DNA of 16,294 nt, taken from positions 1 through 16,294 of the forward strand of contig JBLIRP010000083.1 in assembly GCA_049472355.1 (NCBI GenBank). Direction: 5' to 3'. Shown piece by piece: positions 2,305-16,294 of the stretch (the stretch's first letter is position 1; every line of letters begins with the position of its first letter). Under the pieces are notes generated by a model. The model worked only from the letters and a program-made list of their open reading frames with translations, was not told the DNA's origin and made no database searches. This DNA comes from a bacterium (lineage in GTDB: Bacteria; SZUA-182; DTGQ01; JAFGSM01). A program made the translations under genes and the position numbers.

Positions 2305-3063
2305 ATGGAGCGGCACGAATATGCGGTCATGTTCAAGATGGAGGAGGACTACTGGTGGTATCGTGGATTGCACGATATGGTCATGCGCTGCATTTCCCGG
2401 TTCGCCCGGCACTCTCAACGTGCGCGTCTCCTCGATGCAGGATGCGGCACCGGGAGGCTCCTCCAGATGTTCGGGGGCAGTGACTCCTACGGCATCGATT
2501 GTTCCCCCGAGGCATTCAAATTCCTGAAGGTGCGCGGTCTCGCCAATGCAGCCAGGGCATCGGTATGCGGCATCCCCTTCAAAGACAAAGTATTTACCCT
2601 GGTGGTTTCCCTGGATGTCCTTTACCACTGCGGAGTGCGGGATGATGTGAAGGCAATTGCGGAGTTCCACCGGGTGCTCGAACCGGGCGGTGTGTTGATC
2701 CTGAACCTTCCGGCATTTGAGCTTTTCCGGGGTGCGCATGACGCGGCCGTGCACACACAACGGAGATATCGCATAAAGGATGTGCGCGGAAAACTGGAGA
2801 AGGCCGGTTTTGACATCGCATTGATAACCTATCGGAATACCCTCCTGCTCCCTGCGGCAATGGCGGTGAGGCTGATGAGAAGGAGCGGATCCCGGCATGG
2901 GCATGGCGTCAGGTCTGACCTCATGTCCCTGCCCGGATGGGTAAACCGGCTCTTCTACCTGATCCTGATGTTCGAAAACAGGCTTTTATTGCAGGGGTTG
3001 ACATTTCCCTTGGGGCTCTCTGTTTTCTGCGTCGCAAAGAAGGATAAGGAGGAGACCGCATGA
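2305..3063 (+). CDS. Class I SAM-dependent methyltransferase
   Basis: SAM-binding motif I LLDAGCGTG, plus GIDCS and RVLEPGGVL. The N-terminus EEDYWWY and the HD..VH..RRY motif are typical of methyltransferases in sugar clusters. It abuts the upstream stop codon. Confidence 0.9.
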   Translation: MERHEYAVMFKMEEDYWWYRGLHDMVMRCISRFARHSQRARLLDAGCGTGRLLQMFGGSDSYGIDCSPEAFKFLKVRGLANAARASVCGIPFKDKVFTLVVSLDVLYHCGVRDDVKAIAEFHRVLEPGGVLILNLPAFELFRGAHDAAVHTQRRYRIKDVRGKLEKAGFDIALITYRNTLLLPAAMAVRLMRRSGSRHGHGVRSDLMSLPGWVNRLFYLILMFENRLLLQGLTFPLGLSVFCVAKKDKEETA

Positions 3064-4964
3064 GAATGTCCAACGGCACTATCACCCCGACTCACCAGGT
3101 AAGGAAGGGCGCCGGACAAGGGCACCTGAGAGGGGAAAAACGTTTGAAGATGTATACAGGCACCAGCACAAAGAATCAAAAGGAGGGAAGCGCATGCGCA
3201 GCAAAGGGGATCATGCAGGGAAAATGGTGGCCTATAGGAATCATCCTGTGCCTTCTCATCCTTTCATTCCTCATTATTCCGTCCGATTATAATCACGCCC
3301 ACGGAGACGGGGGCATCTATGCACGATGCGCCAAGGTCTTATACGAGACGAACCGGATCGACATCACCTATTCCGCAGCCTCTTTCATCGGCCAACTCCT
3401 TTTCAGCAACATCCTCTGCCACATCTTCGGGTTTCATCTCAGGGTCCTCAACATATCCGTCTATGTCGCCAATCTCCTGCTGCTTACCGGGATGTACCTG
3501 CTGCTCATGGAGATGGGGCTGAATCCCTTTTTGGCGCTGTTCGGCTCCCTGGCCCTCCTGGTCAGCCCGATCTCTCTGAAGATGATAGACTGGTACATGA
3601 CAGAGCCCTTCTTCATGTTCTATTCCGTATTTTCCCTGCTCTTCTTTATCAAGGGCCTGCGCAGGGAACGATATCTCTTCCTCTATATAGGGAGCATCTT
3701 CGCTGCGCTCGCCGTATTGACCAGGCAGCATGCCGTTTCCCTGTCGATGGCATTGGCGGCATTGTGCCTTCTCTATAGAAGGCAGATGAAAAGGGAAACA
3801 ATGCTCCATTGCATGATTACAGCGGCAATCCCGATGCTCGCCATCGGATTATTCTATGTTTTCCTTTTTAAATTCAACATCTTACATACGGACGTGCCCC
3901 ACGTTCAAACCATATCCAAATATCTTATAATTCTCAAAGACATCCGGAGCCCTGTCAATCTTTTGATAAAATTCTACTATGATGCCCTCTTTTTTCTCCA
4001 CTACGTCCCCCTCTACCTTGCGCCCCTCTTCATCACCCTCTTTGCCGTGCTCATCATGAGACCGAAAAGGATACGGGAATTGTGTACGAATTGCACCTTC
4101 CTGGGGATGTCCCTCATCTTTGTTTCGATCGGTACGGTCAGCCTGTTCCTGCAAGGTGATCACCTGATGCCCTATCTTCCCAGCATATTCAGCATCGGCT
4201 CATTGACCCGGGTTTTTACCGTCACGGTGCTAAAACCGGAACAGGCATCATGGCTTTTGAGCATCTTTACCGGGACGGGTGCGATCCTCATCCTGACAAC
4301 GATGTCGGAACATGCCTTCCGAAACCGGACACATACAGATCACGCAGCCGGCCGAAAATTGTCACGAAGCAAGGACAGGCAGCCCCAAAAAGAGATGGCA
4401 AGAACACGTGACCTCGGCAGCATGTTTTTCTATTTATGGGGGGTATTCTTCATTGTAACAACCATAATCATCGGACTGCACTACGATCGGTATATTTATC
4501 CCATCTCCATTCTGATGATCTATGTATTTTTGAGTCATTTCTCCTTTATTAATGAGCACAAAATAGTCTTAATAACGGCATTTATATTGATCTATGCGGT
4601 ATTCATTTTTCAGGTTTCAAGCTCCAGGCTGTTTATAGATCTTCAGTGGAGAGAAAGCTATGCCCTTGTTCAAGAAGGCATTCCCTCATCCAAAATAAAC
4701 GGGGGATTGGGATTTAATCAATATGAGAGTTTTGATTATATAACCGATCTTTATAAAAATGTCACCTCTAACAGGCCCATCAACTGGTATAAATTTCATC
4801 CCCTTGCTGATTTCTTTGTTACGGGGAGTACGGGATTGGAACAAAAGGACAAGGGGCTTGTTCTTTACAGAAGCGCAACCCAGAAGAGACTCTTCGGCGC
4901 ACTTGAAGGACGATGCTTTATCTACAAGAGAAAAAAAGGCCATAAGGGGCCAATCTGGACATAA
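3060..4964 (+). CDS. Multi-pass membrane glycosyltransferase, GT-C fold (ArnT/PMT-like)
   Basis: Many hydrophobic segments, an acidic first-loop motif (HGDGGIYA), MTEPFF, ALAVLTRQ, YDRYIYP and a soluble C-terminal domain. ATGA overlap with the previous gene, although the true start could be a later Met (3150 or 3213). Confidence 0.7.
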   Translation: MRMSNGTITPTHQVRKGAGQGHLRGEKRLKMYTGTSTKNQKEGSACAAKGIMQGKWWPIGIILCLLILSFLIIPSDYNHAHGDGGIYARCAKVLYETNRIDITYSAASFIGQLLFSNILCHIFGFHLRVLNISVYVANLLLLTGMYLLLMEMGLNPFLALFGSLALLVSPISLKMIDWYMTEPFFMFYSVFSLLFFIKGLRRERYLFLYIGSIFAALAVLTRQHAVSLSMALAALCLLYRRQMKRETMLHCMITAAIPMLAIGLFYVFLFKFNILHTDVPHVQTISKYLIILKDIRSPVNLLIKFYYDALFFLHYVPLYLAPLFITLFAVLIMRPKRIRELCTNCTFLGMSLIFVSIGTVSLFLQGDHLMPYLPSIFSIGSLTRVFTVTVLKPEQASWLLSIFTGTGAILILTTMSEHAFRNRTHTDHAAGRKLSRSKDRQPQKEMARTRDLGSMFFYLWGVFFIVTTIIIGLHYDRYIYPISILMIYVFLSHFSFINEHKIVLITAFILIYAVFIFQVSSSRLFIDLQWRESYALVQEGIPSSKINGGLGFNQYESFDYITDLYKNVTSNRPINWYKFHPLADFFVTGSTGLEQKDKGLVLYRSATQKRLFGALEGRCFIYKRKKGHKGPIWT

Positions 4965-4999
4965 TTCCCTCGGCTTGATGGCGTGGTGGAGAATAACCT

Positions 5000-6496
5000 G
5001 TGAAATTACGCATTCGCCCGCAAATGATCATCAGCTTTCTGATGATGAGCGCATTGCTCTTTGTGGTGGTGGTCTGTTCAATTTTCTACACGAGCCGTAT
5101 GCAGGAGAACACCGCCCGAATACTGGTGGAAAACGTCTCCAGCCTGAAATCGGCAGAGGAACTGGAGATCGCCCTCCTGGACATGAAGGGATTGACCGCC
5201 AATTACCTCCTGGACGGGGATGAGAAATGGCTGGAGATATTCCATGAAAAGCAATTGTCATTCATAAACTGGTTCAGCAGCGCGCGGGAGAGGACCCATT
5301 CCGATGAAGAAGACGGGGTCATTGATGAAATAGAAGTGCTCTACGAAAGGTATACGGCACATCAGGGAAATGTCGTGGTCTCATACCAGGAGGGGGATTC
5401 CGGCAGGGCACATGCCCTGCTTATCAGTGATATGCGAGACACATTCAATCTCGTCTATGAGAAGTGCGAGGAGTTGCTCTCCATTAACGAATATATGATG
5501 CATCAAACCAGCATGTCGATTGAACGGGACAAGCGCTCTATCAAGAAGATCACCTTCGGAATCGGCATCATGGGAATCCTATTGGGAACGGCCCTGGGAC
5601 TGGGTGTGTCCCGGAGTATCACCCATCCGATCTACGAGCTGGTATTGAAGGTAAAGGGTGCAACCAGCGAGGAGCTTGTCGAGAAGGTTGACATATCGGA
5701 AGAGACCGAATTGGAGCACCTGAGCAAATATGTCCGGAGGTTGATTGAACGGGTGCATGAGGTGAATAAGGACCTGGAGCAGAGTCAAAGGATGCTGATC
5801 CGGTCGGAAAAACTCGCAACCATCGGACAGATGGCCGCTGGTCTGGCACATGAGATACGCAACCCCCTGACTGCCATCAAGATGCTTATCTTTACCCTTC
5901 AGCAAGAGGCAAAGGGCAATTTCGGGATGGAGAGGGATTTTGAGGTCATGCTCAAGGAGATTGAACGTCTGGAACGTTTTCTGGGAAATTTTTTGACCTT
6001 CGCCCGGCCCCCGGAGCCCAACCTCAGCCATATGGACATCAATGAAACAGTAAGGCATACCTTGGACCTGCTCTCACCGCAAACAAAGGCCAAGGGAATA
6101 GCGGTGATGGCAATGCTCTGCGACGAATCAGCACCCGTGTACGGGGACAGGGAACAGCTCCAGATCGTCTTGGTGAATGTCATATTGAATGCGATACAAT
6201 CCATCACCACGACGGGGATGATCACTGTGGCGAGCCGTATTACAAAGGAAACCAATGGACAATGCCCCCATGTATACATCAGCGTAAGCGATAACGGGAA
6301 GGGAATCCCTCCGGGGATACTACATTCGATTTTTGACCCCTTCGTAACCGGCAACGAGAAAGGAACCGGGCTCGGTCTTTTCATTGCACATCAGATCATC
6401 ACCAACCATGAGGGCGGGATCGAGGCATACAACAATCCCGATCAAGGTGCAACGTTTGTCATACATCTACCCATGAAGGAAGCACAGACATGCTGA
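5000..6496 (+). CDS. Membrane sensor histidine kinase (two TM helices around a helical periplasmic sensor, HisKA, HATPase_c)
   Basis: H-box AAGLAHEIRNPL, N-box NVILNAIQ, G1 DNGKGI, F-box IFDPFVT, G2 GTGLGL. GTG start preceded by GGAG. Confidence 0.93.
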   Translation: MKLRIRPQMIISFLMMSALLFVVVVCSIFYTSRMQENTARILVENVSSLKSAEELEIALLDMKGLTANYLLDGDEKWLEIFHEKQLSFINWFSSARERTHSDEEDGVIDEIEVLYERYTAHQGNVVVSYQEGDSGRAHALLISDMRDTFNLVYEKCEELLSINEYMMHQTSMSIERDKRSIKKITFGIGIMGILLGTALGLGVSRSITHPIYELVLKVKGATSEELVEKVDISEETELEHLSKYVRRLIERVHEVNKDLEQSQRMLIRSEKLATIGQMAAGLAHEIRNPLTAIKMLIFTLQQEAKGNFGMERDFEVMLKEIERLERFLGNFLTFARPPEPNLSHMDINETVRHTLDLLSPQTKAKGIAVMAMLCDESAPVYGDREQLQIVLVNVILNAIQSITTTGMITVASRITKETNGQCPHVYISVSDNGKGIPPGILHSIFDPFVTGNEKGTGLGLFIAHQIITNHEGGIEAYNNPDQGATFVIHLPMKEAQTC

Positions 6497-8126: not shown

Positions 8127-8214
8127 CTCTATAAAGATAGAAAGGGTACAGCAAGCTTGCCGTAAAAGATGAGCAACGACATCAATTGACAATAGAACCG
8201 TGGAGGAAACGAAC

Positions 8215-8544
8215 ATGTCAATCACACGATATACACGATATAAATGGTATCTCTGTATCCTATGTATCGAAGTGGTCCTATTTCTTGTTACAGCCGCATG
8301 CCATGCCGAGGTATCGACCGAGGCCACCGCCATGGATGAAAAGATGGAAGAGGTGATGAGAAATTGCAGGGTTGTCGAGATTGGCGGGAAATTCTTCAAT
8401 GTTTACATCAACCAGCATGACAAGATTATCACCATTAAAGGAATCATAGAAACCTGGGATGAGATGGACAAGGTTGAGCGCTATTTCAAACACAGGGGGC
8501 CCTCCGATTATATCGTTAACTGCATGCTGGATTTCGAGGATTGA
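8215..8544 (+). CDS. Small exported protein, possibly BON-domain-like
   Basis: GGAGG RBS at 8202-8206. Basic-then-hydrophobic N-terminus ending ..TAACHA (signal peptide-like). The segment NVYINQHDKIITIKGIIETWDEMDKVE...IVNCM resembles the BON strand-G-helix pattern. Confidence 0.6.
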   Translation: MSITRYTRYKWYLCILCIEVVLFLVTAACHAEVSTEATAMDEKMEEVMRNCRVVEIGGKFFNVYINQHDKIITIKGIIETWDEMDKVERYFKHRGPSDYIVNCMLDFED

Positions 8545-8591
8545 TAACCAGGAAAACGGCACATAACAACGAAGCCAATAAGGAGCATCAC

Positions 8592-8855
8592 ATGTTGAGA
8601 AATTGTATAGTGTCATGGAAAAACCTCGGAAATTGTCTTACCCCGATAGGAGATATAGGTAATTGTCTGGTCCCAATAAGGGAGATCAAGGAGTATTATA
8701 CCGGATTGGAATCGCGCCGCAGTGAGCAGACGAATCCCTTCAAGAGGCTCGCACTCGAGTTGGAGGGCAAGGGTCTGAGGCAATCATTGAAAGGTGAGAT
8801 AAAAAATGAGGGCTCCGGTGCCCTGTTGCTGGAGCCCCGTCCTCTCACGACATGA
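8592..8855 (+). CDS. Hypothetical protein (87 aa) with three 10-aa Asn-Cys repeats
   Basis: AAGGAG RBS at 8580-8585 before ATG 8592. RNCIVSWKNL / GNCLTPIGDI / GNCLVPIREI. No family recognised. Confidence 0.45.
   Translation: MLRNCIVSWKNLGNCLTPIGDIGNCLVPIREIKEYYTGLESRRSEQTNPFKRLALELEGKGLRQSLKGEIKNEGSGALLLEPRPLTT
8598..8687 (+). repeat. Degenerate 3 x 30-bp tandem repeat
   Basis: AATTGT recurs at 8601, 8631 and 8661. Units 2 and 3 are clearly similar (GGAAATTGTCTTACCCCGATAGGAGATATA vs GGTAATTGTCTGGTCCCAATAAGGGAGATC). Confidence 0.65.
8800..8837 (-). terminator. Possible intrinsic terminator for nifU-nifS
   Basis: The minus strand reads GGGCTCCAG-(10 nt)-CCGGAGCCC followed by TCATTTTTTA, about 80 nt after the nifS stop. 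Confidence 0.45.
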
Positions 8856-10086: not shown

Positions 10087-10916
10087 TCACCCTCCACGAG
10101 GATATCCTCGCTCACCAACTCCCTTAATTTTTCTTCGATACCCTTTATGGTCACGCTACCCATCGGGCATTCGATACACATCCCCCTCAGGGAGACGATG
10201 ACCCTGTTCCCTTCCACATCGATAAGATCGAGGTCCCCGCCATCCGCCTGAAGACGTGGCCGGATCTCCTTTTCAATGACATCCTGGATGAGCGCTATCC
10301 TCTGGAGGTTGGTCATCTTCCTGGGGGTCTTCGGCGCCTCGACCGCCGTTTTCCCGGACCAGATATCCTTCAGGATCGCCTCTATGGCCGGGATACAGGT
10401 GCCGCATCCCCCTCCTGCCTTGGTGTAATTGGTGATCTCCTCGATGCTGGTGAGGTGATTTTCCATGGCCACCTTCCGTATCTTTTCCTCGGATACGTCA
10501 AAACATGTACAGATGATCCTCTCTCCCGTTTCCTCCGGTGTTTTCTCACCCCTGTAGTTTGCAATGGCAGCCTCCAGTGCCTCCCTCCCCATGACCGAGC
10601 AATGCATCTTCTCCTTGGGGAGCCCGCCGAGATAGTCGGCAATGTCCTGATTGGTGATTTTCAGGGCCTCGTCCACGGTCTTTCCCTTGACGAGCTCGGT
10701 GAGCACCGAGGAGCTTGCGATGGCAGAGGCGCAGCCGAAGGTCTTGAACTTTGCATTGGTGATCCTTCCCGTGTCCTTGTCGATCCTCAGGTAAAGCTTG
10801 AGCGCATCGCCGCAGACCATGCTTCCCACCTCTCCCACCGCATCCGGGTTCTCTATCTCACCCACATTCTTCGGGTGGAGGAAGAATTCCTTTACCTTTT
10901 TGGTATAGTCCCACAT
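10083..10916 (-). CDS. nifU: Fe-S cluster scaffold NifU (IscU-like domain, BFD-like [2Fe-2S] domain, Nfu domain)
   Basis: Starts MWDYTKKV at 10916. IscU cysteines VCGD, FGCASAIASSS and KMHCS; middle domain ICTCF...GGGCGTC; Nfu domain RPRLQADGGD...GMCIEC. Confidence 0.95.
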   Translation of the reverse strand: MWDYTKKVKEFFLHPKNVGEIENPDAVGEVGSMVCGDALKLYLRIDKDTGRITNAKFKTFGCASAIASSSVLTELVKGKTVDEALKITNQDIADYLGGLPKEKMHCSVMGREALEAAIANYRGEKTPEETGERIICTCFDVSEEKIRKVAMENHLTSIEEITNYTKAGGGCGTCIPAIEAILKDIWSGKTAVEAPKTPRKMTNLQRIALIQDVIEKEIRPRLQADGGDLDLIDVEGNRVIVSLRGMCIECPMGSVTIKGIEEKLRELVSEDILVEGE

Positions 10917-10923
10917 AATACGA

Positions 10924-10952
10924 TTTCTATCAGAAACGTCAAAACGTGTCAA
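10924..10952 (-). promoter_or_regulatory. Possible sigma70-type promoter of nifU
   Basis: The minus strand reads TTGACA-17 nt-TAGAAA with a TG extended -10 element, ending 7 nt before the ATG. Confidence 0.4.
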
Positions 10953-11042
10953 TGCGCATTTTTCCACAGGTCCTGATTGCGACGGGGTGTTCTCAGGGTA
11001 GTGCCCGCCGCGTCCCCGATCTCTCTGTCCGGGTCTTCCTTG

Positions 11043-11131
11043 CCGGGGCCATCTATCCCACCTGCCTTCTTCGGGCGAGGAGGAATTTCTTTACCTTTTT
11101 CGTATAATCCCGCATAATGTAACCTCTATCA
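11043..11131 (-). pseudogene. Degenerate duplicate of the nifU 5' end (frameshifted; 20-aa ORF at 11115..11053)
   Basis: 11068-11118 aligns with 10868-10919 at 45/52 positions by hand count (6 mismatches, 1 gap). It encodes MRDYTKKVKKFLL versus MWDYTKKVKEFFL in nifU. Confidence 0.8.
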
Positions 11132-11179
11132 TAGTCATCAAATACGACCCAATCGGTACCCGATGAAGGTATTTCACGT

Positions 11180-11563
11180 ATGTTGAAGGGTTTCTATCTC
11201 CCGGGGAACAGGGGGAGCACACTCGTGCAATCACTTGAATTTCACCATATCATCCGGAGATTGAGGGACAGGGTGAACGCCCTATCGCTCACTTACTGCG
11301 GGAGGCCGATCAATGCGGACTTCAAGGGCCTGGCAGACAGGGCCGCAAAGGTGAAGACAAAGGCATCCAGCCTGAGGTGGCTTGAGATAAGGAGGAAAAG
11401 CAGGACCCATGGCGTCATGCACGATCAGAGTGGCTTTGTCGGCAGTATCACCTTTGAGGGGGATCTCAGAGAGTTCCTCCCCCTGATCCTCGCCGGCGAA
11501 TACGTCCATGTGGGGGAGGATGCTGTCCTCGGGAATGGGTGGTACAGGGTCGAACAGATATGA
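11180..11563 (+). pseudogene. cas6: Cas6 (RAMP pre-crRNA endoribonuclease), C-terminal half only
   Basis: EFHHIIRRLRDRVNALSLTYCG...LRW...GFVGSITFEGDLREFLPLILAGEYVHVGEDAVLGNGWYRV ends in the Cas6 Gly-rich loop. Only 127 aa, with an in-frame stop upstream at 11132, so the N-terminal RRM domain is absent. Recognisable similarity starts near 11210. Confidence 0.8.
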
Positions 11564-11573
11564 AATATCGCTT

Positions 11574-12434
11574 TTATACAACCTCGATAATACCTTCTCT
11601 CAGTTTTTCAACCTGAAGCAATATTTCGTCAAAATAATCATCGGACATGGGCAATCCTCTGATCATATCAGTCACCAACCTGTATTGGGATCGTTCCCGT
11701 GTTTCGTCATCCAATATTTTTCGGACTGCGTGTAATGTGTCAGGATGAGATATCTTGCCCATATCCTTGCCAAGCAGTCTGATACTGGCGAGTCTTGTAT
11801 CGAAATTTTCTTCTTCGAGCAGCTCATGCTCTTCCCTGTAAAGTCTTTCAAAGTTGCCGGCTTCTTCATAGCTATGCATAATGAGCATCAAATCCTCAGC
11901 ATCTTTCTTGCGCTCAGGATATGCGTCTTTCCAGGAGATAATCTTCATGAGCGCCAATCCAGGCAGGGTTGGTAATCTGATATCGAGTAAAGGATCTGAA
12001 CTTAGTCTGACTATAATCGAATATTCAAAAGCATCCTTGAATCCAAGCATGCTCATGAATATCTCATGCTCCGGCGGCCAACTAATTCTCTTGTTTTCAT
12101 CGGTAATAGAGCCGAAGGGAACTATATCGATAAGAATAGAATTGAATCGAAACCTGTGTCGTTCCGCTGTAGAGGTAATTCTTCCTGTTTCCATTAATGA
12201 TTTCGTCAATTGATTGAACTGCGCCCAATTTTTAAGTTCAACACCCAGGTCGATATCCCTGGTCATTCTGGGTGGTTCTCTGCCGTAACAATGTTTGAGA
12301 ATGAGGTCTCTTGCTGAAGCCCCAACAATAAAAAAGGGGATGTGCAAGGAATCCGCAACCTCCTTCACGATGGAAAGAGCATCTACTGTCTGTTGATCAA
12401 TCTTCTCTGATAAGTTGAAGGATATGTTGCTCAT
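11574..12434 (-). CDS. Nucleotidyltransferase toxin, AbiEii/AbiGii-like (type IV TA)
   Basis: FFIVGASARDL...RMTRDIDLGV (Pol-beta NTase DxD motif), IDIVPFG, LMKIISW and KDAEDL. Its start overlaps the antitoxin 3' end. Confidence 0.85.
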   Translation of the reverse strand: MSNISFNLSEKIDQQTVDALSIVKEVADSLHIPFFIVGASARDLILKHCYGREPPRMTRDIDLGVELKNWAQFNQLTKSLMETGRITSTAERHRFRFNSILIDIVPFGSITDENKRISWPPEHEIFMSMLGFKDAFEYSIIVRLSSDPLLDIRLPTLPGLALMKIISWKDAYPERKKDAEDLMLIMHSYEEAGNFERLYREEHELLEEENFDTRLASIRLLGKDMGKISHPDTLHAVRKILDDETRERSQYRLVTDMIRGLPMSDDYFDEILLQVEKLREGIIEVV

Positions 12435-13437
12435 AGACTATCTTTGCTGTCTCGATGTTTCTCTGATTGCCTGTTGCCAGGAGATCCGCATAAATAAGGA
12501 TGGGATGCACCATGTCCTCATAGCGCCATACCTCATTTTGCTTCCAAAACCTTTCAAGTATTTCAACTTCGCCCGTTTGATCCTTCTTAAGCCTGTTCTC
12601 AATCAGGAGCGGATTAAGCTCCTGAGTCGTTGTATAGATCGTTATCATCTCGGGTTCCAGATATTGAGTGAGTCTTGCAGCGGCAATCTCTCCACCCCAC
12701 TGTGCCTTTAAAGGGTGCAGTTTCTTCTGTTTCCACCAGCCATATTCGCCTCCGAAGCGTCCCATAATCAGTTTTGGTCTCAATTGTTCCGGATAGGCAG
12801 TCACCCATCGCTGCAATAAATTCTCCCTCTGGGTCAGCCTCTGCCCTCGCTTTCCCATATCCAGGAGAAAGCCCAGCCCCTTTAGTTCTTTCATGATCCA
12901 GTCAACGGTGCCAAGGGCCACATTTGCCACAGCAGCAATCTCCCGGTAGGTCTTGTTCTCTAAACCAGGATTGCATAAGAAAGCATAAATCATTCTGAGG
13001 CCTGCCGGCTTGAACGCCCTGGTGAGTTTGGCCTGTTTAGCGATCTCCGGGGGTTTGTTTCCCTTTACAAAGAGGTACAGCGGTGGCTGATTGATAAGTG
13101 CATTGCCTGCCGTGTCGATAAATTCTACGCCATCCTGTCGTAACTGCTCCGCCATCTGTGCATTAATATATTTTGTAATCAATAAAAGCGGATATTGTAG
13201 CTTCTCCCGGTGCATGAATAATAAAAGCTTGTGGGTTTTTGTCACGGCAGTCTTGATTTCAGCATAGTAACGCAGCTCTTTGCCCTGCGCCACAATCCGA
13301 AGCAAACGGTCTGCCTGCACCTGGCCAGGCTCCGGCGCCAACGTCTCAATCTCTATGTGTGCCGGCACATTCTTCCCTAATGCCTCCAGGGCAAGCCGGA
13401 AGATCTCATCTTCTGTATCTTTGTTAATTTTGTGCAT
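12397..13437 (-). CDS. AbiEi-family antitoxin / transcriptional regulator (type IV TA)
   Basis: FIDTAGNA, winged-HTH TYREIAAVANVALGTVDWIMKEL, WGGEIAA and VHPILIYADLL. It lies directly upstream of an NTase gene. Confidence 0.85.
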   Translation of the reverse strand: MHKINKDTEDEIFRLALEALGKNVPAHIEIETLAPEPGQVQADRLLRIVAQGKELRYYAEIKTAVTKTHKLLLFMHREKLQYPLLLITKYINAQMAEQLRQDGVEFIDTAGNALINQPPLYLFVKGNKPPEIAKQAKLTRAFKPAGLRMIYAFLCNPGLENKTYREIAAVANVALGTVDWIMKELKGLGFLLDMGKRGQRLTQRENLLQRWVTAYPEQLRPKLIMGRFGGEYGWWKQKKLHPLKAQWGGEIAAARLTQYLEPEMITIYTTTQELNPLLIENRLKKDQTGEVEILERFWKQNEVWRYEDMVHPILIYADLLATGNQRNIETAKIVYEQHILQLIRED

Positions 13438-13442
13438 ACGTC

Positions 13443-13497
13443 TTGTTCACTTTTTTGCTATGTTCATTAATTATGAACATAGCAAAACTATGAACAA
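13443..13497. promoter_or_regulatory. Long inverted repeat, candidate antitoxin operator
   Basis: Perfect 15-bp arms TTTTGCTATGTTCAT (13453-13467) and ATGAACATAGCAAAA (13473-13487) around 5 nt. After 3 mismatches the arms extend with TTGTTCA/TGAACAA. Confidence 0.85.
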
Positions 13498-13504
13498 AAG
13501 TCAA
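13476..13504 (-). promoter_or_regulatory. Sigma70-type promoter of the TA operon
   Basis: The minus strand reads TTGACT (13504-13499), 17 nt, TATGTT (13481-13476) with a TG extended -10 element. The -10 box and spacer are covered by one arm of the inverted repeat. Confidence 0.65.
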
Positions 13505-13514
13505 GTCCCCCGGA

Positions 13515-13720
13515 TCCTCATAGTGCTTGAGAATGGAAATGGCTCTCGAAACAAGGTCGGCATCATAAACCATCTCATCATCGATTGAATGAGTAAGCAC
13601 ATGCACAGGGACGACACCCGTTCTCCCACGCCTGTTCACCCTGCCGAATCGCTGAACAAGGGCCTCAAGGGGGGCAGGCTCCGTGATGATCGTGTCAAAA
13701 TCAAGATCGAGGCTTACCTG
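13515..13720 (-). pseudogene. cas3: Cas3 helicase internal fragment (motifs V-VI, about 70 aa)
   Basis: QVSLDLDFDTIITEPAPLEALVQRFGRVNRRG...VHV...VYDADLVSRAISIL matches the Cas3 signature (E)VSLDID.D..ITE.AP.D.L.QR.GRVNR.G. There is no HD domain, Walker A or DEAH box upstream and no C-terminal domain downstream. Confidence 0.85.
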
Positions 13721-15343
13721 GCCTATGATGCGGCGGTTGCCACGATAGAGGCCGGCCTTCAACTGGCAAGCGCTGCATATACCCCCCTGAGTCTGGATTT
13801 CACCTGCTACCGAACGCCCTTCTCCCTGCTTACTATGGGGGAGATACACATGGACGCGCAAGCCGGGCGGGACCCCTTTCATGAGTACTTTACAGGGGTA
13901 TTGTGCGAGCGTCTTGCAACCGAAGGGATCAACCTGGTGGGGATCTCGGTGGCCTTCCCCGGGCAGGTACAGCCTGCTTACTCCCTTGCCTTCATCCTGC
14001 GCAGGAAGCTCCCCCACGTTTACCTCACCGTCGGCGGTCCGGCCATCACACAGTTCCTGGTGAGACTCAAGGGAGAGCGCCTGCGCTCCGCACTTGGCCC
14101 CTTCCATTCGGCGGTGCTCTTCGAAGGCGAAGATGCGCTCCTTGATCTCATACAGGGCCTTGAGAAGGGGGAAAGACCCTCGGGCGTCATCCGGGGCGGC
14201 CTTGTTTCAAACCTGGGGAGACTTCCAGCCCCCGATTTTGATGGATTGCCCATTGATCAGTACCTTGCGCCCAGTCTGGTGCTCCCCTATGACCCGAGCC
14301 GCGGCTGCTACTGGGGGAGATGTGCCTTCTGCCACTACGGCCTTGCCGAGTCAGGGACCGTCTGCTACCGTGAGCGTCCGGTCGAGCAGGTCGTCGAGCA
14401 CCTGGATCGCCTCTCGAAACGGTATAACTGCGGGGTCTTCTATTTTTCGGAGGATTCCCTGGCCCCTGCCACAGCCCTTCGCCTTGCCCGTGCATTTCGC
14501 AACTCCGGCCATTCCTGGCGCTGGAGCACGGACATGCGGCCTGAGCCGGTGATCACCCCGGAATACGCGAGCGAGCTTGCCGAAGGGGGGGCACTCAGCA
14601 TCGCCGTGGGTGTGGAGTCCGCGTCGCGCAGGATACTCCGCCTGATCAACAAAGGTATCAGCATAGCGGAGTCAAAGACCGCGATCCGGAACCTTGCCTC
14701 CGCAGATATCGCGGTCGAGGTCATGTGTTTTACCGACTTTCCCACGGAAACCGCTGGGGAGGCATTCGCTACCCTCCGCTTTCTTGACGAATATCACACG
14801 AGGATAGCGCTCTTCATGTGCGGTCGGTTTCATCTCACCCACGGGGCACCCGTGGCAATGAATCCGCGGGCCTTCGGAATTCGCGACATCTGGGAGGTCT
14901 CCGGGGACGAACTCGGCACCGGCATCTTTTACGAAGAGAAGTCCCAAGCGAAGACACGGATGGATCATCAGAGGATCGGGGATGCCATCCGTGCGCTTTC
15001 AGCCGGATGGTGGCTTCACAGATACCCATGGGCAGGGTCCCTCTCGACCGCCCATACCCTTCTCTGGTTTGATCAGCACGGCCCGGATGTATTCCGGCGG
15101 TATGCGGGAGTCCGGTCGCCTTCCGGCGGTTCGGGCGAGGGCCGCGGCATCACCAAAAGGCTCTTCGATGTGAGGGCGATCTCGGAAAAGGCATCGGAGC
15201 ACGAGGCGCGCATCTGGCACACCCTTGTATACAGACGGCGCTCGGTAACAAGGCGCGACTACGAGGAGCTTGCCCGCACCTTTCCTCCGGCGGGGAGAAT
15301 CTCACGGGGGCCTTCAGGAAAAAGGGGCAAAAAACGTATATGA
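13589..15343 (+). CDS. B12-binding-domain radical SAM protein, probably 5'-truncated (family-like sequence starts near 13720)
   Basis: LVGISVAFPGQV...TVGGP...FEGE (cobalamin-binding-like domain), PAPDFDGLP, SRGCYWGRCAFCHY (Fe-S motif), FYFSEDS and GVESASRRILRLINKG. The first ~44 codons are antisense cas3 sequence. Confidence 0.8.
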   Translation: MSKHMHRDDTRSPTPVHPAESLNKGLKGGRLRDDRVKIKIEAYLAYDAAVATIEAGLQLASAAYTPLSLDFTCYRTPFSLLTMGEIHMDAQAGRDPFHEYFTGVLCERLATEGINLVGISVAFPGQVQPAYSLAFILRRKLPHVYLTVGGPAITQFLVRLKGERLRSALGPFHSAVLFEGEDALLDLIQGLEKGERPSGVIRGGLVSNLGRLPAPDFDGLPIDQYLAPSLVLPYDPSRGCYWGRCAFCHYGLAESGTVCYRERPVEQVVEHLDRLSKRYNCGVFYFSEDSLAPATALRLARAFRNSGHSWRWSTDMRPEPVITPEYASELAEGGALSIAVGVESASRRILRLINKGISIAESKTAIRNLASADIAVEVMCFTDFPTETAGEAFATLRFLDEYHTRIALFMCGRFHLTHGAPVAMNPRAFGIRDIWEVSGDELGTGIFYEEKSQAKTRMDHQRIGDAIRALSAGWWLHRYPWAGSLSTAHTLLWFDQHGPDVFRRYAGVRSPSGGSGEGRGITKRLFDVRAISEKASEHEARIWHTLVYRRRSVTRRDYEELARTFPPAGRISRGPSGKRGKKRI

Positions 15344-15487
15344 CTGAATATCGTCATCTGGTTCCGCATGGTGACGGCAATAATCACTCCTCATGCATGT
15401 GCTTCAGCGTGCACAGGAGGAGGGGAATACCCCTGCCTTCCTCCCGGATGGAGAATCGGCCAGAATAGATAAGCGGATGATACATCA

Positions 15488-16294
15488 ATGAAACCCCTGT
15501 CACGCATATTCTCGCCCAGGCATACGTCACGCCACCACATCACCTGGAACGATACGGTGGTGCTCATCGGTATGGGCATCCTCCTCTATGTGGGTCTGTA
15601 TGTTGCCCGGAGGGCCCCGGCGTTCGCGGAGGCCCCGGAGATCTCCCTTTCTCCGCTGGCCATCCCCTGGTATGCCCTCCTCTCCGTCAGGAGGATGGCG
15701 GCCGCCTATTGCCTGACCATGCTCTTCGCCATGGTATACGGCTGCTTTGCCGCCTCGGACCGCCGGATCGAACAGGTCCTGATACCCCTCCTGGATGTGC
15801 TCCAGAGCGTGCCCATCCTCTCGTTTCTTCCGGTGGCCCTTTTGATCCTGAGCGCCGTCCTGCCCCAAAAAAGGGCGGTGGAGCTTGCCTCGGTGGTCCT
15901 GATCTTCACCAGCCAGGTCTGGCACCTCACGTTCGCCTGGTATCAATCCCTGATCACGGTCCCCAGGGAGTTGCGCGAGGCAGCCACGGTCTTCCGGTTC
16001 AACCGGTGGATGCGTTTCAAGACACTGGAGCTTCCCTTTGCCGCCGTCAGCATGATTTGGAACAGCATGATGAGTTGGGCAGGGGGATGGTTCTTCCTGA
16101 TGGCAGCCGAAATCTTTACGGTGGGGAACCGCGACTTCCGCCTTCCAGGGCTTGGCGCGTATCTCCACGAGGCGGCAGGCAGCGGCGATATCCGTGCGAT
16201 TTTATGGGGGGTAGGCGCCCTTATACTGGTCATTGTCTCCCTGGATCAGTTTGTATGGTGCCCGCTCCTTGCATGGTCCGAGCGATTCAAGCTG
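15488..16294 (+). CDS. ABC transporter permease subunit, NitT/TauT-type (anion transport); runs off the 3' end of the window
   Basis: Not in the ORF track because there is no stop in the window. Hand translation gives MKPLSRIF...IPLLDVLQSVPILSFLP...IFTSQVW...VPRELREAATVFR (EAA loop)...WNSMMSWAGGWFFLMAAE...LPGLGAY. Confidence 0.9.
   Translation, partial: MKPLSRIFSPRHTSRHHITWNDTVVLIGMGILLYVGLYVARRAPAFAEAPEISLSPLAIPWYALLSVRRMAAAYCLTMLFAMVYGCFAASDRRIEQVLIPLLDVLQSVPILSFLPVALLILSAVLPQKRAVELASVVLIFTSQVWHLTFAWYQSLITVPRELREAATVFRFNRWMRFKTLELPFAAVSMIWNSMMSWAGGWFFLMAAEIFTVGNRDFRLPGLGAYLHEAAGSGDIRAILWGVGALILVIVSLDQFVWCPLLAWSERFKL

Follow-up and report, generated by a model that had tools for sequence, protein, structure and literature searches.

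Defence islands and insertion hotspots that decay, with their cas genes turning into pseudogenes, are a recognised phenomenon. The toxin-antitoxin (TA) system AbiE has been described from the AbiEi/AbiEii pairs of Streptococcus agalactiae and Lactococcus (Dy et al. 2014, PMC3985639; bioRxiv 10.64898/2026.01.19.700257). The AbiEii toxin is defined by the pol-beta signature hG[GS]...DhD together with the family motifs III and IV, and the antitoxin AbiEi represses its own operon via inverted repeats in the promoter (PMC3985639). AbiEii and the MenT toxins add nucleotides to tRNA 3' ends, and in MenT1, MenT3 and AbiEii it is auto-phosphorylation, induced by the antitoxin, that turns the toxin off (PMC11375011; bioRxiv 10.64898/2026.01.19.700257). 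Another TA element, CreTA, guards type I-B CRISPR-Cas loci; it consists of an RNA toxin and an antitoxin resembling a CRISPR RNA (crRNA) that needs Cascade and Cas6, so that the toxin is set free once the cas genes are gone (PMC12737573). Here we analyse a window of 16,294 bp, an entire contig (JBLIRP010000083.1) of a metagenome-assembled genome (MAG; 148 contigs, 87.5% complete, 54.0% guanine-cytosine (GC) content), in which an AbiE-class TA cassette stands between pieces of a cas6 and a cas3 gene.

The best-supported reading of this locus is that the cassette survived while the cas locus around it was worn away, the main rival being the import of a ready-made mosaic. We think it probable that the AbiE-class cassette has remained intact amid the scraps left by successive in-place deletions of a horizontally acquired type I locus that it had entered, and the case is likely one of tidy but ordinary defence-island decay. 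The first-pass annotation had named four segments from the sequence alone as Cas6, the C-terminal helicase region of Cas3, AbiEi and AbiEii, and profile searches matched all four (Table 1).

Table 1. Coordinates in the window of the TA cassette, the cas pieces beside it and the other features of the variable island.
Feature	Position	Strand	Details
Toxin, DUF1814/AbiEii-class nucleotidyltransferase	11574..12434	-	286 aa, full length; PF08843
Antitoxin, AbiEi_2 family	12397..13437	-	346 aa, full length; PF09952
TA promoter and operator	13443..13504	-	-35 TTGACT 13499-13504; extended -10 TATGTT 13476-13481; inverted repeat
cas6 remnant, internal deletion	11180..11563	+	start codon + 7 codons, then last ~116 codons; breakpoint between 11200 and 11211
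cas3 internal piece	13514..13717	-	68 codons, helicase motifs V-VI, VSLDLDFD...QRFGRVNRRG...ILKHYED
Variable island	10969..15487	.	4,519 bp between nifU and ABC-permease gene; synteny with sister species G001 breaks there
Degenerate nifU 5'-end copy	11052..11142	-	91 bp: upstream region + ~25 codons, 1-bp deletion
Radical-SAM (B12-binding class) gene, 5'-truncated	13718..15343	+	Pfam and NCBIfam matches; ~120 N-terminal codons gone

The cas6 open reading frame (ORF) matched PF10040 CRISPR_Cas6 (E 8.5e-13) and the PADLOC profile PDLC01477 (E 7e-34, profile positions 183-295 of 296), and no NCBIfam family. Its residues 1-7 (MLKGFYL) are identical to residues 1-7 of P0121, a full-length metagenome Cas6 of 320 aa, and its residues 12-125 correspond to P0121 residues 207-320 at 91% identity; a second full-length Cas6 used for comparison (L053, 335 aa) is 69% identical to the remnant. 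Contigs about 91% identical to the window, from the public sequencing runs X1, X2 and X8, diverge before 11211, and their divergent part reads in frame IKYNPTGEK, the same as P0121. The alignment and this divergence indicate that about 200 cas6 codons were deleted between 11200 and 11211 while the start codon was kept; residues ~8-206 of the full-length relative, the N-terminal two-thirds, are missing. The identity and plus strand of this piece had been called correctly, whereas its description as the 3' half of the gene gives way to an internal deletion.

The cas3 piece, first sized at about 70 aa on the minus strand and exactly 68 codons long, was recognised in a minus-strand frame at about 13514-13723 by models of the Cas3 helicase C-terminal region, PF22590 (E 1.2e-10), TIGR01587 (positions 288-357 of 358) and PADLOC Cas3b (E 1.2e-23). 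It is 80-84% identical to the proteins P0201-P0203; the counterpart HD-helicase Cas3 proteins have 763-768 aa, and the piece thus holds 68 of ~765 codons and lacks a start codon of its own. Both cas pieces are open frames without stops. The two 10-bp gaps reported earlier proved exact, one between the cas6 stop (11561-11563) and the toxin stop (11574-11576), the other between the end of cas3 homology at 13514 and the -35 box. Likewise, the cassette is more AT-rich than its flanks, as had been noticed: GC content is 42.3% in the toxin gene, 47.9% in the antitoxin gene and 35.1% in the promoter, against 56.4% in cas6, 51.6% in cas3 and 60.8% in the radical S-adenosylmethionine (SAM) gene, that is, 42-48% for the TA genes versus 52-61%. 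We count for the favoured reading that the cas scraps, at 52-56%, lie near the genome value of 54% and the cassette at 42-48%.

The first description had also seen no array and no other cas gene, and this was borne out: Cas1, a second cas3 and a second cas6 were found neither in the window nor in the 87.5%-complete MAG. A crude scan of window and MAG yielded no CRISPR array, the MAG being incomplete and arrays often failing to assemble, and positions 10800-14000 contained no Rfam match, no repeat array and no crRNA-like repeat. A CRISPR-like signal at the end of contig C9 of the same genome (11137-11491) was rejected as a 75-bp tandem repeat of at least five copies with no spacers. As regards cas5, cas7 and cas8, no Cas family appeared among the other window ORFs submitted to Pfam, the rest of the genome not having been searched for these three. 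The locus in the window is not a type I CRISPR-Cas system, as its defining parts are missing.

Related sequences preserve the arrangement in less eroded states. Besides the full-length Cas6 of P0121, there is a longer cas3 remnant, P0201 (281 aa, 84% identical), which runs ~105 residues past the HYED motif and then ~65 more. This ORF ends in ...W-LLFIVLLCS-LIVNITIK, and the -35/operator region of the window, translated in frame 0, reads T-stop-LLFIVLLCS-stop-LMNIAKK-stop; the stretch LLFIVLLCS agrees at 9/9 residues, therefore the P0201 cas3 remnant also lies directly upstream of the same TA promoter. The non-Cas3 head of P0201 and the middle of its tail had no match in the genome or in the collected loci. 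At the other end of the cassette, a 164-nt contig of run X1 bridges the same junction of cas6 stop and toxin stop (11476-11638, 15 mismatches and 1 gap, ~91% identical), and the variant lineage it represents also has an undeleted cas6. Variant cassette contigs in X1, X2, X7 and X8 diverge behind 13514/13515, a position that we read as the breakpoint of a deletion in the window's lineage that also removed upstream GTTCA repeats. The notion that 13514 is a natural cassette edge shared by all was dropped, since P0201 continues past that point. Whether cas8b comes next after the cassette in the variant contigs was examined with the translated cas8b start of the type I-B locus L054, which showed no resemblance to their divergent ends. 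For both P0121 and P0201 the longest contig on record, from JGI, measures 47,741 nt, and the two are probably located on one contig. By these comparisons the arrangement predates the window's deletions, and the presence of at least three erosion states at 84-91% identity implies that erosion continued after the arrangement had formed.

The cas pieces probably derive from a horizontally acquired type I locus of I-B-like kind. We found no Cas6 match in the host family (0/5 genomes), and the best one in the host phylum (20 species genomes in the collection searched) was 46% identical. Cas6 relatives from metagenomes reach 69-91% identity, those named by NCBI coming mostly from Nitrospirota or Thermodesulfovibrionia MAGs, and a metagenome locus scan with the Cas6 piece recovered relatives at no more than 69%. 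One of the relatives at 69% is followed by cas8b and cas7b, a type I-B arrangement, and another by small genes and then cas10. Together with the Cas3b best match, these Cas6 relatives point to the origin proposed above. Among viral contigs, neither P0121 nor the antitoxin had a relative.

The cassette itself is intact, as first proposed: both genes are full length and the operator is conserved in 16/16 aligned upstream regions. The antitoxin gene lies upstream of the toxin gene in one operon, and the ORFs overlap by 38 nt, an overlap that is identical in the closest relative, L020. The toxin scored 28.4 bits against PF08843 AbiEii (cut-off 22.5, E 2e-6); its homologues (961 at E <= 1e-5) carry the NCBI name AbiEii/AbiGii toxin family, with PF08843 precomputed on most of them. 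It retains every residue invariant across a 32-sequence alignment, where the motifs V37-G38-A39, D60-I-D62, K164-I-I-S167-W168, R175 and D181 (numbering of the full protein) are invariant or at least 90% conserved; motifs I and II are spaced by 20 residues. The toxin P0002, encoded on a 4,196-nt contig, is 88% identical to that of the window. The AF2 model of the toxin (predicted local distance difference test (pLDDT) 73, predicted template-modelling score (pTM) 0.73) found its top Foldseek match among solved structures in MenT1 (8an5_B, E 8.9e-5, template-modelling (TM) score by target 0.53). Matches to the MenT1 structures 8an5, 8an4 and 8rr5 ranged from E 9e-5 to 6e-4 at 17-19% sequence identity, and other top matches were ANT(2'')-Ia and LnuA, with CCA-adding enzymes and TglT/MenT3 at E 2e-3 to 1e-2. 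The model suggests, with moderate confidence, a nucleotidyltransferase fold like that of the MenT/AbiEii toxins.

The antitoxin matched PF09952 AbiEi_2 over residues 200-339 (E 1.2e-42). Its model is poor (pLDDT 51); the helices it contains, together with the conserved residues 160-190, suggest a helix-turn-helix around that region. The N-terminal domain (residues 1-125) belongs to no Pfam family and appears as alpha-beta-beta-beta-alpha-beta in the low-confidence model. Foldseek gave this domain weak PD-(D/E)xK-type matches (AF1548, MspJI, AspBHI, VRR_NUC and NucS, E 5e-3 to 0.1), a likeness that we regard as a lead and not as a result, and the ESM Atlas shows it again in further AbiEi_2 clusters (TM 0.78-0.90 by query). 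The residues D43 ... E60-x-K62 may form a motif of this domain but are not invariant. Searching by sequence against solved structures left the toxin without a match and brought no meaningful one to the antitoxin; NCBIfam has no family for either protein, and in PADLOC the toxin matched only the candidate PDC-M21B, weakly, and the antitoxin nothing.

The promoter is laid out as TTGACT, 17 nt and TG-n-TATGTT. Over its -10 region and start site lies the operator, a 25-nt inverted repeat (arms 13443-13467 and 13473-13497, 88% complementary) with four GTTCA/TGAAC half-sites, conserved in the 16 upstream regions mentioned. In 10 of 15 relatives (L023, L024, L025, L027, L028, L029, L031, L032, L033 and L034) a second cluster of GTTCAT/ATGAACA/TGAACA sites precedes the -35 box by ~100-150 bp and may be an auxiliary operator; the window lacks this cluster because the cas3 scrap abuts its -35 box.

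The profile match places the antitoxin in the AbiEi_2 branch (PF09952, which we take to be equivalent to COG4861), apart from the COG5340 AbiEi proteins. COG4861 proteins are given as partners of COG4849 toxins by Dy et al. (PMC3985639), and MenT1 has been assigned to COG4849 (bioRxiv 10.64898/2026.01.19.700257). The pair is a new member of the AbiE/MenT-class TA family. A limited literature search found no experimental work on a COG4861-COG4849 pair.

Fifteen other loci carry close, full-length antitoxin relatives (61-79% identical), in Nitrospirota, Thermodesulfovibrionia, Syntrophales/Thermodesulfobacteriota, Acidobacteriota and Nitrospinota, at least five phyla as labelled. Their DNA homology to the window is limited to about 11564-13509, from promoter to toxin stop. 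The first-pass annotation had considered that the cassette moves with captured cas fragments, or that a conserved cas3-AbiE-cas6 linkage in relatives marks a coupled defence system; neither idea agrees with the survey, as there was no real Cas6 or Cas3 match at these loci (0/15) and no Cas Pfam match among their flanking ORFs (0/117; at least 90 aa, within 6 kb). A few tblastn "cas3" matches in the cassette loci were discarded as translated operator region. The closest relative, L020 (79% identical), adjoins TrbC/TraU conjugation genes, and elsewhere the neighbours include a phage-type integrase accompanied by a rolling-circle replication protein, transposases of the IS66 and rve kinds, a TOTE primase-helicase, Fic and PIN genes and a Schlafen-type helicase, the remainder being housekeeping genes. 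Taken together with decayed copies in two genomes of the window's own phylum, G004 and G006, this survey indicates that the cassette is mobile, often on or near mobile elements, not linked to cas genes and not decay-proof.

The cassette and the cas pieces lie in a variable island (Table 1). On its 5' side stand genes of housekeeping or surface-polysaccharide type, identified by Pfam and NCBIfam: an epimerase, a DegT aminotransferase, a methyltransferase, a histidine kinase, a sigma-54 activator, nifS and nifU. Synteny with the sister species G001, at ~90% DNA identity through nifS/nifU, ends at 10968 and restarts at 15488, the start of the ATP-binding cassette (ABC) permease gene, from where identity is 88.6% in DNA and 83% in protein; G001-like contigs in runs X5 and X7 also part from the window behind 10968. 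The sister-genome comparison proposed earlier, which looked for a full cas locus or an empty site between nifU and the radical-SAM gene, did reveal a variable site, but one that is bounded by nifU and the ABC permease and that in G001 holds a Phd-type antitoxin, a PIN toxin and a HEAT-repeat gene (1,890 bp in total). These occupy positions 264-2153 of L016 (G001:C40) and encode 83, 121 and 290 aa, respectively. With a TA pair at the same place in G001, the nifU/permease site is therefore a recurrent landing place for TA cargo, the content in the window being gene scraps and the AbiE-class pair.

One of these scraps is the degenerate nifU copy, 78% identical in DNA comparison to 10852-10943 and 80% to the G001 nifU; it matched the nifU of this genus only, with 0 matches in 29 other relatives. 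It has the same orientation as the intact nifU, 84 bp upstream of it, and an old partial duplication or an allele-replacement remnant are candidate origins. Another is the radical-SAM gene, whose homologue in G005 has 661 aa and is 53% identical, the alignment beginning only at its residue ~121. Homology in the window starts at 13719, and an X2 contig extends the radical-SAM frame upstream of that position. The annotated ORF of 584 aa (13589-15343) begins at an ATG at 13589 and for ~43 codons reads the cas3 scrap in antisense; it is a chimera and probably a pseudogene, although an internal Met exists at about 13838. Outside the island, the window contains a 634-aa ORF of no Pfam family at 3060-4964, a stretch of 37-45% GC inside a sugar-modification cluster, and, at 8200-8855, directly before nifS, two family-less ORFs (114 and 104 aa) at ~45% GC. 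Both regions may be further foreign patches.

On the favoured reading of erosion in place, the cassette would have landed beside cas6, inside the 3' part of cas3. Later deletions would have taken ~200 cas6 codons, ~105 further cas3 codons along with ~200 bp ahead of the TA promoter, and the whole stretch from cas3 motif V to radical-SAM codon ~120; we infer this order of events. The antitoxin would bind the four GTTCA half-sites overlapping the -35 and -10 elements and so repress its own operon, the toxin would, as a DUF1814 nucleotidyltransferase, add nucleotides to tRNA 3' ends and stop translation, and the antitoxin would neutralise it, possibly by inducing its auto-phosphorylation as in MenT1, MenT3 and AbiEii, for which S40 in the G38-A39-S40 loop is a candidate site. 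The cassette is predicted to have persisted while its neighbours decayed because it is driven by a promoter of its own and losing it would carry a penalty, without being able to protect the genes beside it. The idea, put forward initially, of a type I locus lost with its TA core surviving is upheld in that the pieces are true remnants, the TA pair is the only intact unit and less eroded relatives exist; the simple deletion from two sides that it assumed does not fit the convergent genes.

That convergence is the first of several points that weigh against erosion in place. The cas6 (+) and cas3 (-) pieces face each other, while the closest type I-B example found, L054, is colinear (cas6, cas8b, cas7b); therefore two simple flanking deletions of one operon cannot yield this layout, and the arrangement calls for either an inversion or two separate loci. 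The placement of P0121 and P0201 on one contig rests on the equal figure of 47,741 nt, and none of the best 120 of the 961 toxin matches lists a contig of that length. Broken, uncalled or lower-ranked TA genes on that contig are possibilities. The less eroded relatives could also stand for the donor lineage and not for kin of this genome. That deletions halt at functional edges is argued from a single endpoint, 10 bp before the -35 box; the variant lineage has the cas6/toxin junction too, probably as the joint of the original insertion. Cassettes of this type do decay: in G006 (L018, G006:C38, 3447-4163) toxin residues 1-178 remain in two frames and of the antitoxin only residues 275-346, and in G004 (L019, G004:C146, locus coordinates 4124-5212) the antitoxin has an in-frame stop and no toxin match was found. 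Last, the toxin's identity draws on a weak PF08843 match (28 bits) and a model of moderate quality (pLDDT 73).

The alternative that survives best, though we hold it to be unlikely, is that a ready-made mosaic of cas6 remnant, TA pair and cas3 scrap, perhaps including the truncated radical-SAM gene and the scrap of nifU, came in broken from another organism and entered the hotspot by one illegitimate recombination, so that no cas locus ever worked in this lineage. Such an import would suit an island that stands in place of unrelated G001 genes, a Cas6 whose identity to any relative in the phylum's 20 genomes does not exceed 46%, a cassette that is mobile across phyla and lies elsewhere near conjugation, integrase and transposase genes, and a radical-SAM gene that was not found in G001 or G002. 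It accounts less well for the at least three erosion states of the same arrangement at 84-91% identity, a divergence similar to that of nifSU between the window and G001 (~90%) and compatible with congeners, and for a nifU scrap that matches the nifU of this genus only.

Less probable still is that the cassette was itself the destroyer, an insertion borne by a mobile element into cas3 that ended interference and left the cas genes, now of no use, to decay. A 3'-clipped cas3 precedes the cassette promoter, with like orientation, in the window as well as in P0201, and the neighbourhood of conjugation genes in L020 would agree with such a vehicle; however, the cas3 remnants are truncated at the 5' end too, the order of events is unreadable from the present data, and no target duplication or terminal repeats were seen at the cassette edges. 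We give very little credence to a functional, coupled cas3-AbiE-cas6 defence unit in which the small cas pieces are working parts. Their open frames and the start codon kept by the mini-cas6 speak for it, but the N-terminal two-thirds of Cas6 are gone, Cas3 is reduced to 68 codons without a start, cas neighbours occur at none of the 15 other cassette loci, and remnant lengths differ among related lineages, which is a pattern of decay and not of constraint.

An assembly chimera, conceivable for a window that is one whole 16.3-kb contig of a 148-contig MAG, can practically be set aside, given that independent Logan assemblies from three studies bridge all junctions. Part of the stretch occurs in 19 public runs (10 studies), with no RNA run listed, and Logan contigs of four runs were aligned to the window. 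Exact matches cover 10932-11254 and 11476-11682 (X1), 13054-13631 (X5) and 13455-13752 (X8), and an X1 contig at 13240-14058 spans its junctions with 6 mismatches; one of the bridging runs may be the source sample. Contigs run across every junction, therefore the junctions are real, and the doubt raised at first about a chimeric assembly found no support.

A stronger form of the favoured reading is that we are looking at a natural deletion series, in which the cassette entered a type I-B operon and outlived it, relatives keep successive states of its erosion, and the cassette was trimmed to a minimal self-sufficient unit whose limits lie 10 bp before the -35 box and 10 bp beyond the stop codon of the toxin gene. 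We put this forward tentatively, as a possibility with the balance somewhat against it. If true, the series would be field evidence that an addiction module protects itself alone and marks the site of a lost CRISPR-Cas locus. The finding bears on how a defence locus dies: a self-sufficient TA pair stays while its cas neighbours are deleted piecemeal, the opposite of retention by CreTA. It also holds a lesson for annotation, as short open cas6 and cas3 ORFs beside a TA pair do not amount to CRISPR-Cas or to a new coupled system. The AbiEi_2/COG4849-type pair stands for a large clade with a clearly defined four-half-site operator and is easy to test. Current concepts are left unchanged.

In comparison with known systems, the cassette resembles AbiE, as far as the sources cited above describe it, in being bicistronic with the antitoxin first, in its DUF1814 pol-beta-type toxin with motifs I-IV, in an antitoxin that combines a putative DNA-binding region with a C-terminal domain predicted to neutralise the toxin, in the inverted repeats of its promoter, and in being a type of module found in defence islands and on mobile elements. 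It differs from AbiE in that the antitoxin is AbiEi_2 (PF09952) and not COG5340 AbiEi, with an extra N-terminal domain of ~125 residues, and in that the toxin has a low PF08843 score (28 bits) and a motif I-II spacer of 20 residues versus 15 in AbiEii. MenT1 (Rv0078A) of the Mycobacterium tuberculosis MenAT systems provides the best solved-structure match for the toxin model, yet identity to it is 17-19% and MenA1 is a 7.4-kDa protein without a helix-turn-helix. The precedent of CreTA, invoked in the first-pass annotation, applies to the position of a TA element inside a cas locus and to the logic of addiction; it does not carry over further, as the pair in the window is autonomous and protein-based, comes with a promoter and a protein antitoxin of its own, and has survived the cas genes instead of protecting them. 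With decaying defence islands the locus shares a variable site between conserved genes, different TA or defence cargo in a sister species and scraps of several genes, and it stands apart from them in one respect, that three of its erosion states are documented by related sequences.

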